Positions 2,131-5,124 of a stretch of DNA of 64,000 nt are shown here, one piece after another (within the stretch, counting starts at the first letter, position 1; each line of letters begins with the position of its first letter). A program made the translations under genes and the position numbers. The stretch spans positions 96,001-160,000 of the forward strand of contig JBHLNS010000001.1 in NCBI GenBank assembly GCA_048941285.1, read 5' to 3'. The DNA is from Promethearchaeota archaeon (GTDB taxonomy: Archaea > Asgardarchaeota > Lokiarchaeia > Sigyniarchaeales > SOKP01). The notes beneath the pieces are model-generated. The model saw nothing but the letters and a program-made list of their open reading frames with translations, searched no databases and was not told the origin of the DNA.

Positions 2131-5124
2131 ATGAGTTATACGTTTTCAAGAACAAAAATGATTGAAAAGATCAAGTTTGGACTTCTAAGCCCTGATGAAA
2201 TCCGAAAAATGTCAGCAGCCCGTATTATAACTGCTGATACATATGATGAAGATGGATTACCTATACCATCTGGATTAATGGACCAACGATTAGGTACCAT
2301 CGAACCTGGGCAACGTTGTCAAACTTGTGGGAATTTAGTAAGTAACTGTATGGGCCATTTCGGGCATTGTTAGAAACAATTAGATTCTAACGCCTAAATC
2401 GAATTAGCCCGTCCAGTTATTCATGTAGGTTATGCTAAAAAAGTCTTAAAAGTTTTACGTAGTATTTGTCCAGAATGTTCACGTTTGATGCTTACAGAGG
2501 AGGAAAAAGAGAAATTTAGAGTAGAACAAGTTAAACACCGAAAAATCTTTTTTGAAGGAGATGAAGACGCGGCAAAAATTGTCTTTAAACGAGCAAGAAA
2601 AGCAAAAAATTGCCCTTATTGCGAGGCAAAAAAGAAAAAAATAATTATTGAAAAGCCGACAACTTTTTATGAGGAAGAAGAAGGGAAAGGTTCACGGAGA
2701 ATAACTCCTATTGAAATATTAGAACGATTAAAAAAGATGAGTGATGTGGATCTTAGGATCCTTGGAATTTCTCCTGAAAATGCTCGTCTTGAATGGGTTG
2801 TTTTTACAGTTTTACCAATTCCCCCCGTATGTGCTAGACCCTCTATTACATTAGATAGTGGTATTCGATCTGAAGATGATTTAACACATAAATTAGTTGA
2901 CGTTATTAGAATTAACCAACGATTAAGAGAAAATATCGATGCTGGAGCACCTCATTTAATAGTCGAAGACCTGTGGGAGTTATTACAATATCATATTACA
3001 ACTTATTTTGATAATCAAGTATCTGGTATACCTCCTGCTAGACATCGATCCGGTAGAGCACTTAGAACCTTAACTCAGAGATTAAAAGGTAAGGAGGGAA
3101 GATTTAGAAGTAACTTGAGTGGAAAACGAGTCGATTTCTCTGCCCGTAGTGTAATATCCCCAAATCCTTATATTAGTATTAATGAGGTTGGTGTTCCAAT
3201 TGAAATCGCAAAAATTTTAACTATACCTACCAATGTTAATGATTGGAATATTGAAGAAATGAAACAGATGGTTTTGAATGGGCCTTTTAAACACCCTGGA
3301 GCAAATTATATTATAAGAAATGATCGTAGAAGAATTGACCTGCGATATGTCAAAAATCGGAAGATTATAGCTGACATGCTTGCTCCAGGTTTTACAATTG
3401 AGCGCCATTTAAATAATGGAGATTTAGTATTATTTAATCGCCAACCATCTCTTCATAGAATGTCGATAATGGCTCATGAAGTAAAAATAATGAAAGGAAG
3501 AACATTCCGGTTAAACCTAACAGTATGCCCGCCATATAATGCTGATTTTGACGGAGATGAAATGAACCTTCACGTACCTCAAAGCGAGGAAGCCCGTACA
3601 GAAGCAGAGCTATTGCTAAAAGTTCAAGAACATATACTGTCTCCAAGATTTGGTGGGCCAATATTAGGTGGTATTCAAGATTTTATTTCAAGCGTATTCC
3701 AATTTACAAGTAAAGAGTCTGTATACACTAAAAAGGATACTTTAAAATTGTTATATACTGGAGATGTATTTAAAAACAATCCTAAATTTAGCTTGGATCA
3801 ACTAACTCCTGTGTTATTTGACCCAGAACCAATGTATTCTGGAAAAGATATCTTCAGTACTTTATTTCCAGATGATCTAAATATTAAAGTTAAATCAAAA
3901 TTTTGTAAAAAATGTAAGGTATGTGAAAAAGAAGATTGCCCCTATGATGCTTATGTTGTAATAAAAAATGGAAATTTAATTACTGGAACTATTGATGAGA
4001 ATTCTTTTGGAGCTATGCAATCAAACAGTATTTTACAACGTATTATTAAGGATCATGGTAACGCACGAGGAAGAATATTCTTAGACAGTGCAACCAAGAT
4101 GCTATTATATGTTATTCGACAGAATGGAATGACAATGGGATTGGATGAAGTATATGTCCATGGTCATGCTTATGAAGCAATCCAAAAAATATTAGAAGAA
4201 GCAAATAAAGAATCTGAAAAATTAATTAACGCATTTTATGAAAATGATACAAAAATTCTTAGAAGAGCTCCTGGTCGTTCAATGAGGGAAACTTTAGAGT
4301 TAAGAATCCGCCAAGTATTGGCAGAAGCTAGAAAAAAAGCAGAAGAAACAGCAGCAGAATTCATTGGAGATGAAGCTCATTCTGTCATTATGACTAAATC
4401 TGGAGCTAGAGGTAATATATTAAATCTTGGACAGATGTCTGCTGTAGTAGGACAACAAGCAATTAGAGGAGAAAGAATTAATAGAGGATATAGTATGAGA
4501 ACGCTCCCTCATTTTAAAATTAATGATTTATCCCCTAAATCGCGAGGTTTTGTTTCTTCATCTTATAGAAATGGATTAAAACCAGAAGAATTCTTTTTTC
4601 ATGCTATGGGAGGAAGAGAAGGATTAGTAGATACAGCTGTAAGAACATCCACATCTGGATATATGCAACGTAGATTGGTAAATGCATTACAGGATATGGT
4701 TGTTGAAAATGATGGCACTGTTCGAAATTCTGATAAAAATATAATCCAGTTCTGTTTTGGAGATGACGGCATTGATGCAATGCACACTGATCATGGTGCT
4801 GCGGTGAACTTGGACGTTTTGTTATTAAAAGCAAAAGCTCTAAATGTTAATGAAGTGCGTGAAGAGATTAAAAAGGGCACTTCAACAAAAAAACTTGAAC
4901 CTAAGAAAAAAGATGAATCTAAGAAAAAAGATGAATCTAAGAAAAAAGATGAATCTAAGAAAAAAATAGCAGAAGAACCTAAATCTGAAGCAGAACCTGA
5001 AAAAGAAGAATTAGATGAAGATTTTTTAAAACAACAATTTGAACAAGAAACTGGGAAAAATGCAGTTTGGCGTGGTAAAGAAACCAATGCATACCTAGAA
5101 TGGAAAGAAAAAAGAATAAAATAA
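2131..5124 (+). CDS. rpoA1: DNA-directed RNA polymerase subunit A' (Rpo1N), join(2131..2367,2398..5124), about 987 aa after removal of a 30-nt intron
   Basis: [35 protein letters not shown]|[34 protein letters not shown]; the ORFs at 2131 and 2485 are in the same frame, separated only by stops inside the insert. Confidence 0.97.
2368..2397 (+). other. Putative BHB/BHL (tRNA-type) mRNA intron in rpoA'
   Basis: Helix GGGC(2362-65)/GCCT(2392-95), bulges AT^T(2366-68) and AA^A(2396-98), inner stem GTTAGAA/TTCTAAC with 9-nt loop; contains in-frame TAG and TAA; removal gives GGG CAT ATC GAA (G-H-I-E). Confidence 0.88.
4903..4965 (+). repeat. 18-bp coding tandem repeat (AAGAAAAAAGATGAATCT x3.5; KKKDES) in the rpoA' C-terminal tail
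   Basis: Identical units start at 4903, 4921 and 4939, with a partial unit at 4957. Confidence 0.95.

Follow-up and report, generated by a model that had tools for sequence, protein, structure and literature searches.

A probable bulge-helix-bulge mRNA intron in the RNA polymerase subunit A' gene of a Promethearchaeota archaeon, with variable counterparts in its family

In the genome of a Promethearchaeota archaeon, the gene rpoA', which encodes the catalytic-core subunit A' of RNA polymerase, is interrupted by 30 nucleotides (nt) that we regard as a true archaeal bulge-helix-bulge (BHB) mRNA intron of the EndA/RtcB type, with a probability of roughly 85% on the sequence evidence described below. 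The mRNA of this essential gene would then probably be cut and rejoined before translation. The gene occupies positions 2131–5124 on the + strand of the window, by which is meant the whole 64,000-nt stretch analysed (contig JBHLNS010000001.1, positions 96,001 to 160,000, assembly GCA_048941285.1), and all rpoA' coordinates below are those of the window. The source genome, of 3.55 Mb in 101 contigs, is rated 94% complete.

The rpoA' reading frame is broken by nt 2368–2397, just past the second His of the conserved GHFGH motif and thus between GHFGH and IEL, where the insert stands in place as ...GGGCAT-TGTTAGAAACAATTAGATTCTAACGCCTAA-ATCGAA.... Translated in frame across the insert, the gene reads GHFGHC-stop-KQLDSNA-stop-IELARP, with both stops, TAG and TAA, within 10 codons, and the corresponding peptide of intron-less relatives is GHFGHIELARP. 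The profile RNA_pol_Rpb1_1 (PF04997) matches exon 1 at profile positions 2–73 (E = 2.4e-20) and resumes in exon 2 at position 74; because the profile passes from 73 to 74 without a gap, the 30 nt are the sole extra material and nothing has been lost. An earlier note on this DNA, made from the letters alone, had placed the insert between His and Ile with two in-frame stops and had described around it a 7-bp stem, a 3-nt bulge, a 4-bp exon/intron helix with one G-U pair, and a second bulge, AAA. The sequence and its translation bear out the first part of this description, and each of the structural elements is present, the stem at 2369–2375/2385–2391, the first bulge as AUU at 2366–2368, the helix as GGGC/GCCU at 2362–2365/2392–2395, and the second bulge at 2396–2398. 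The local fold has a minimum free energy of -20.8 kcal/mol (z = -2.78), equalled by 3 of 200 shuffled sequences. The features of the interrupted gene are as follows, with an arrow for a predicted cut.

2131–2367, + strand: exon 1 of rpoA', 79 codons, the last of which encodes the second His of GHFGH; PF04997 profile positions 2–73.
2368–2397, + strand: putative 30-nt BHB-type intron with in-frame TAG and TAA; missing in 42 of the 51 matching genomes of the genus; homologues occupy this site in 11 further genomes and in 9 contigs from metagenomes.
2398–5124, + strand: exon 2 of rpoA', 908 codons plus stop; PF04997 from profile position 74, followed by Rpb1 domains 2–5.
2362–2365, + strand: 5' strand of central helix H (exon GGGC), partner 2392–2395; 4/4 pairs in 12/12 site-1 alleles from genomes and in 9/9 from metagenomes.
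2366–2368, + strand: 5' bulge AU↓U, with the predicted cut after 2367; same register in three tRNA introns of the genome.
2369–2375, + strand: 5' strand of inner stem h', partner 2385–2391; supported by covariation and, independently, by RNAalifold.
2376–2384, + strand: loop of the intron hairpin; the only two differences between the metagenome allele L168 and the window intron fall here.
2385–2391, + strand: 3' strand of inner stem h'; supported by covariation and RNAalifold.
2392–2395, + strand: 3' strand of central helix H (intron GCCU); supported by pairing, covariation and RNAalifold.
2396–2400, + strand: 3' bulge, with the predicted cut after 2397; AA↓A if taken as 3 nt, AA↓AUC in the 5-nt consensus.
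2359–2361, + strand: 5' strand of the proximal outer helix h (UUC), partner 2401–2403 (GAA); RNAalifold on eight alleles, with pairs UA 7/UG 1, UA 8, and CG 6/UG 2.
2334–2354 (2350–2354, 2341–2348, 2338–2339, 2334–2336), + strand: 5' strand of the extended exon-exon helix, partner 2408–2429; RNAalifold and duplex energies.
2401–2429, + strand: 3' strand of the outer helix and of the extended exon-exon helix, with the Ala-Arg codons GCC CGU inside it; RNAalifold and GCCCG counts.

Homologous inserts recur among the relatives of this archaeon. In the genus set (54 genomes, 51 with a match), rpoA' has no insert at any of three sites in 42 genomes, one of them (G014) being cut by a contig end, and is interrupted in the other nine. 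Eight more interrupted genomes, which belong to six other genera of the same family, were found among the short-frame cases of the class set (161 genomes, 149 with a match), where two other short rpoA' frames are contig ends only. The family total is 17 of 127 matching genomes (135 family genomes in all), and every interrupted rpoA' in the class falls in the window's family, the 22 matching genomes of the other six families all reading on for at least 292 codons. The 17 genomes carry 20 inserts at three sites, all located in the first 85 codons of the gene. Site 1, after the His codon, accounts for 12 inserts (31 nt and 40 nt in one case each, 30 nt in the other ten), site 2, which lies 5 nt downstream of site 1 and within the Glu codon, for five (35, 35, 50, 85 and 85 nt), and site 3, at a Leu codon (EDGL↓PIP), for three (30, 30 and 31 nt). 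Sites 1 and 2 are both filled in G024 and G043, with a 5-nt micro-exon between the two inserts, as are sites 3 and 1 in G103, and the lengths of 8 of the 20 inserts are not multiples of three. Nine further site-1 inserts were recovered from public metagenome contigs by a degenerate-pattern search; one of these alleles, L168, has an insert that departs from that of the window at two loop positions only, and its flanking exons differ at two synonymous sites. Such homologues, above all the nearly identical L168, indicate that the insert is real DNA of natural populations. An artefact of assembly or binning, which had been raised as an objection at the outset, might be suspected from the fragmentation into 101 contigs and from a search of the metagenome contig collection in which the exact 50-mer spanning the intron had no match, yet it is scarcely credible given the presence of diverged homologous inserts at the same nucleotide in 11 other species-level genomes and nine metagenome contigs, as well as the L168 allele, in which flanking synonymous sites differ too.

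All inserts conform to one geometric rule for cutting. With i as the last exon nucleotide and j as the last nucleotide of the insert, positions i-5 to i-2 pair with j-5 to j-2, and each cut falls 2 nt 3' of the 4-bp helix so formed. For 20/20 inserts this rule gives back the conserved peptide of the uninterrupted relatives, in agreement with the original proposal that cutting after the second bulge nucleotide removes exactly 2368–2397 and restores G-H-I-E. As a control of the register, three tRNA introns located at 37/38 in this genome obey the rule at the exact intron length given by ARAGORN, and in each of these tRNAs the outer helix, of 6–7 bp, is the anticodon stem. At site 1 the inner stem starts directly after the 3-nt 5' bulge. 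The central helix of site 2 is UAUA/UAUA, with 4/4 pairs in three of the five inserts and 3/4 in the two that belong to twin-intron alleles, where removal of intron 1 would bring in the U of the His codon and so complete the helix; this suggests that splicing of the twin introns is ordered, with intron 1 excised before intron 2. At site 3 the helix has 3/4 pairs in all three inserts and lies beside a 9-bp stem, and the cuts yield GGA CUU or CUA CCN, that is, G-L-P.

Insert lengths and codons also bear on translational recoding, in which the stops would be read through or the ribosome would hop over the insert, as happens with the byp elements of mitochondria and with gene 60 of phage T4. A short, hairpin-forming insert that begins near a stop codon is what such an explanation would call for, and site 2 has ATA both before the insert and within its end. 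However, a ribosome at site 1 would take off from CAT or CAC, neither of which matches the TAA, CAA or TAT that stands before the resume point, and a bypass element of the gene 60 or byp class is rejected for this reason. Hopping at site 2 would produce I-K-L in place of the invariant I-E-L, read-through is impossible for the eight inserts with lengths that are not multiples of three, and neither process explains why, as described next, a wobble base of the exon covaries with the insert's 3' end. Recoding is, in our judgement, very improbable.

Covariation was evaluated on the ten 30-nt site-1 inserts with short flanks, in a gapless alignment and for a specified structure. The proposed helices, which the earlier note had suggested following in related genomes, do covary. 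Paired cells make up 84.1% of the total, compared with 30.7–52.0% when the 3' partners are slid by 1–3 columns. In the inner stem h', both-side changes are found at 9/9 pairs and 90% of the cells are paired, and helix H is paired in 10/10 aligned sequences. The third pair of H joins the wobble base of the Gly codon, at which changes are synonymous, to an intron base, and it appears as G-U four times, A-U three times, G-C twice and U-G once. RNAalifold, run without a supplied structure, returns the same H, 3-nt bulge and h'; run on eight alleles with 36-nt flanks, it adds a 5-nt 3' bulge, a 3-bp outer helix (2359–2361/2401–2403) and, beyond it, an exon-exon helix that is long but interrupted. 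All site-1 alleles have a 5' bulge of 3 nt, and the 3' bulge has this length only if the nucleotides that follow it stay unpaired.

The coding exons appear to carry part of this structure. A duplex is predicted between the exon sequences on either side of sites 1 and 2 (27 nt before them, 24 nt after). Its mean energy is -17.9 kcal/mol for the 15 alleles in which site 1 or 2 is filled and -9.3 kcal/mol for the 46 in which neither is (Mann-Whitney p = 5e-7, a value overstated by the relatedness of the alleles). The Ala-Arg codons read GCCCG in 14/15 insert-bearing alleles and in 4/46 of the others, the Gly codon is GGC in 0/15 and 13/46, respectively, and the Ile codon is AUA in all five site-2 alleles as against 18/46 of the alleles without an insert. 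This codon pattern would be explicable by selection for a splicing substrate or by co-transfer of the flanking exon with the intron, both of which are forms of intron biology.

The genome encodes the enzymes that such an intron would call for. Two EndA paralogues are present, each of about 200 residues and composed of N-terminal and catalytic domains (PF02778, PF01974). Paralogue 1 retains the aligned Tyr, His and Lys of its nearest PDB chains, 3p1z_B and 3ajv_B, which presumably belong to a crenarchaeal heterotetramer as its catalytic subunits; in paralogue 2 the His is absent. RtcB is also encoded (E = 1.6e-170). A published study (PMC5829648) describes in Asgard archaea an (alpha-beta)2 EndA with an L1 loop, linked to a broad substrate range and relaxed motifs, and the presence of one catalytic and one non-catalytic paralogue fits an enzyme of this type. 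According to ARAGORN, the genome contains only 13 tRNA genes, of which seven are called with introns, one of them falsely (a 1953-nt "intron"), and most tRNA genes of this organism are probably interrupted in ways that the program misses. This result agrees with a preprint (10.64898/2026.10.13.758758) which reports that Asgard tRNA genes are heavily interrupted. The calls for Glu-ctc and Val-tac share an identical 3' half.

Based on the observed anatomy, the conserved rule, the covariation and the enzyme genes, a pathway can be proposed in which cleavage, ligation and the identity of the acting enzymes are predictions. The GGGC of the 5' exon would pair with the intron GCCU, the four nucleotides that precede the last two of the intron, with the inner hairpin placed to one side of this helix and the exon-exon helix to the other. 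A heterotetramer of the catalytic and non-catalytic EndA paralogues would cleave both strands 2 nt beyond the 3' end of the 4-bp helix, at 2367/2368 and 2397/2398, whereupon RtcB would ligate the exons to give ...GGG CAU↓AUC GAA... (G-H-I-E, the arrow here marking the junction) and would probably circularise the excised 30-mer.

The interrupted gene is single-copy and shows the constraint of a functional gene. No second rpoA' is present in the genome, the only other match being a 51-residue low-complexity stretch that arises from the KKKDES tail of the subunit, and the possibility raised earlier of an intact copy elsewhere is thus not borne out. Five intron-bearing genomes rated 100% complete have one rpoA' match each. 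The ratio of nonsynonymous to synonymous substitution rates (dN/dS) is 0.010–0.039 (dS 0.44–1.77) over 450 codons beyond the inserts in six pairwise comparisons that involve intron-bearing alleles, and 0.010–0.026 for the window's rpoA' against three intron-less relatives; by these comparisons, rpoA' is under strong purifying selection and is functional. These data also bear on the proposal that the gene is split into two polypeptides, an 80-aa N-terminal and a C-terminal piece, or is a pseudogene. Archaeal polymerase subunits are split elsewhere (A'/A''), and the list of open reading frames (ORFs) of the window does show two of them here. Yet the first ATG, GTG or TTG after the insert is at 2485, so a separate C-terminal piece would lack 29 conserved residues, Zn-binding cysteines among them, and site-2 inserts fall inside a codon. 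A dead gene is in conflict with the single rpoA' per genome, including the five complete ones, and with dN/dS of 0.01–0.04, and in neither case would covariation of an RNA structure be expected. The likelihood of either is accordingly very small.

Several observations, besides the missing 50-mer, weigh against the interpretation of the inserts as BHB introns or limit its reach. The nucleotide beside the 3' bulge is unpaired in 10/10 alleles, and the four outer pairs that adjoin this bulge are formed in only 55% of cases; as a result of this poor pairing, a 5-nt 3' bulge is needed in the consensus and the motif is relaxed on that side. At site 2, the central helix is flanked by 2x1 internal loops, symmetric on the two strands, and not by 3-nt bulges, and the h' of the G043 insert is very weak. 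At site 3, H contains a mismatch and the minimum-energy fold is another structure. The motif is thus a relaxed one, with no textbook hBHBh'. The first description of the structure as BHL-like with a weak outer helix is partly upheld, in that the four adjoining pairs are indeed poor, but it overlooked the extended exon-exon helix, apparently selected, in intron-bearing alleles. Although the observed scores for pairing and covariation are not reached in any of 500 column shuffles, the compared alleles are related, so that the shuffle counts are not probabilities and overstate significance; more weight belongs to the slid controls and to how many distinct pair types occur. Scanning the whole genome also gave two unfavourable results. 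The first scan looked for the geometry of H and h' at places where two open frames would merge; it found about 1,100 such places at the true register, and every off-register control yielded a similar number. The second, which required h' of at least 6 bp, an AA 3' bulge and 80-codon flanks and applied a coding score, gave 33 canonical and 37 alternative-register hits against 28–47 in the controls; it recovered rpoA' but no excess, and mRNA splicing is for that reason not demonstrable as general in this organism.

The departure from a strict hBHBh' at all three sites is also what would favour removal of the insert from the RNA by some other pair of nuclease and ligase, or by an unknown ribonucleoprotein that recognises the hairpin, in place of EndA and RtcB. 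The features that are conserved are, however, those that EndA measures, namely the 4-bp helix and, on either strand, a cut 2 nt past its 3' end, and the same register is kept by the genome's own tRNA introns. [quoted passage not shown] We consider the action of other enzymes improbable, and EndA and RtcB remain the preferred candidates.

As far as can be tested, such inserts occur only towards the 5' end of rpoA' and only within this family. The cbf5 gene of the genome is a 337-codon open frame with no stops in the match, and rpoB is uninterrupted too. Downstream of codon 90, rpoA' itself has no small interruptions in the 129 of 135 family genomes matched by the 908-aa exon-2 query; the match is split only by contig ends, by large in-frame inserts in three genomes and, in G092, by one TAA. 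When the genome was screened, regardless of structure, for coding sequence that follows another ORF and lacks a start codon, 22 places came up, and the best BHB-like candidate (contig C64) was rejected as an ordinary etfB/etfA gene boundary with a fold by chance. The etfA gene at this boundary (ferredoxin domain plus ETF alpha; C64:8600-10900, near locus position 967) overlaps the etfB stop and has no ATG, GTG or TTG for 89 codons; its iron-sulfur motif begins at about codon 5, and an unusual start codon is probably used. The large inserts in rpoA' of G151, G102 and G155 are in frame and stop-free, are located at residue 376–387 of the window's exon-2 protein and extend the frames to 1429–1496 codons from about 980; they are probably inteins. 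In G092 (C173:2727-5324), the exon-2 match contains a single in-frame TAA.

The distribution of the inserts within the family is patchy, since they are present in some species and absent from close relatives. In a tree of 1,380 nt downstream of the inserts (57 rows, none dropped; quick search, with support from the Shimodaira-Hasegawa-like approximate likelihood ratio test only), 5 changes account for the four intron states, where shuffled labels require 5.4 on average, so that the states are scattered and not clustered. In three close pairs with and without the intron (L035/L008, L038/L005, L036/L020), the 5' 200–330 nt that contain the intron site are 5- to 10-fold more divergent than the next 1.4 kb, and in six other pairs, three of them with the window's genome, the jump in divergence is little or none. 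Since chimeric metagenome assembly would give the same jump, recombination or allele replacement is a lead only. A search with the intron and helix H (blastn-short) against the genome itself gave only the self-match, with no repeat or mobile-element copy. We can speculate that the inserts are an active population of mobile mini-introns and not relics, with entry and exit by recombination, exon structure kept by synonymous-codon selection, and ordered, nested splicing, but taken jointly these propositions are tentative and rather doubtful. If they are true, synthesis of RNA polymerase would be tied to EndA and RtcB and transcription capacity coupled to tRNA splicing; introns would enter and leave the 5' end of an essential mRNA through exchange with intron-bearing or intron-less alleles; and nesting around the 5-nt micro-exon would force the order of splicing, with removal of intron 1 completing the central helix of intron 2.

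The surroundings of the gene are as follows. On its 3' side, the window has, by Pfam matches, rpoA'', L30e, a NusA-like KH protein, S12 and S7, in this order. The upstream neighbour is a divergent 497-codon ORF (372–1865, - strand) with no Pfam match, and it is not rpoB, which is found as a 1146-codon frame on another contig, near cbf5 and RtcB (place noted: C69:51966-53087). The C terminus of RpoA' ends in a low-complexity tail with three copies of KKKDES (about 4900–5020, + strand). The closest named N-termini of RpoA' come from metagenome-assembled Promethearchaeota or Promethearchaeia (Asgard archaea of the Lokiarchaeia type), some of which are filed under other Asgard labels, and the N-terminus of Candidatus Lokiarchaeum ossiferum RpoA' is 71% identical over the 79 residues. 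Parts of the gene are contained in at least 20 public sequencing runs, including two metatranscriptomes with a share of 0.11 each, an observation that carries no weight for expression, habitat or the insert.

Comparison with known systems places the rpoA' insert beside the intron of cbf5 pre-mRNA in Desulfurococcales and Sulfolobales, which, according to Yokobori 2009 (PMC2738675), is small and BHB-like, often relaxed, processed by a hetero-oligomeric endonuclease, and gained and lost among relatives. The two are alike in their small size, location in a protein gene, relaxed BHB-like motif, association with a hetero-oligomeric endonuclease and lineage-patchy presence. They differ in the host, which is here the gene of a catalytic-core subunit in Asgard archaea (Promethearchaeota) whose own cbf5 is uninterrupted, and an orthologue of the cbf5 intron is therefore rejected. 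They differ also in the presence of three sites within 85 codons, in the two introns that surround a 5-nt micro-exon (G024, G043) and in the species-level polymorphism. Splicing of cbf5 has been shown experimentally, whereas that of rpoA' is predicted from DNA sequence. With the relaxed (HBh'/hBH/BHL) tRNA introns cut by (alpha-beta)2 or epsilon2 EndA, as outlined in PMC5829648 and in the preprint cited above (10.64898/2026.10.13.758758), the inserts share the 4-bp central helix, cuts within the bulges beside it and a flanking helix that is strong on just one side. They are of similar size (30–85 nt), and the organism is also rich in interrupted tRNA genes; the difference is that the host RNA of the rpoA' inserts is an mRNA. 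BHB sites in archaeal rRNA precursors and in a Haloferax mRNA presumably release or circularise RNAs, or lie outside coding sequence. These sites (Schwarz et al. 2020, PMC7714728) represent the same kind of motif outside tRNA, for which the same enzyme is expected; unlike them, the rpoA' intron needs to be excised if the reading frame is to be restored.

Other classes of intervening sequence do not fit. A group I or group II intron is rejected, as the insert is only 30 nt long and the window has no Rfam matches at gathering thresholds, and so is an intein as an explanation of the 30-nt insert, which has two stops within 10 codons and 8 of whose 20 relatives break the frame. No report of BHB introns in Asgard protein genes or in rpoA' was found in the literature searched, subscription journals and supplementary files being outside its scope. 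As judged from the sequences, what is new to the archaeal BHB mRNA introns, with crenarchaeal cbf5 as the precedent, is the Asgard lineage, a core transcription gene as the host, and several species-polymorphic sites.

In practical terms, rpoA', which serves as a phylogenetic marker, is split or truncated by gene callers in about one in seven genomes of the family. In the literature searched, archaeal protein-coding BHB introns rest on a single gene, cbf5, in Crenarchaeota. The alleles with and without introns in close relatives constitute a natural system for the study of intron gain and loss in coding sequence, as well as of the way in which one stretch of nucleotides meets the demands of both code and RNA structure. 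A second case would mean that mRNA is spliced by enzymes to this day in the lineage nearest to eukaryotes.

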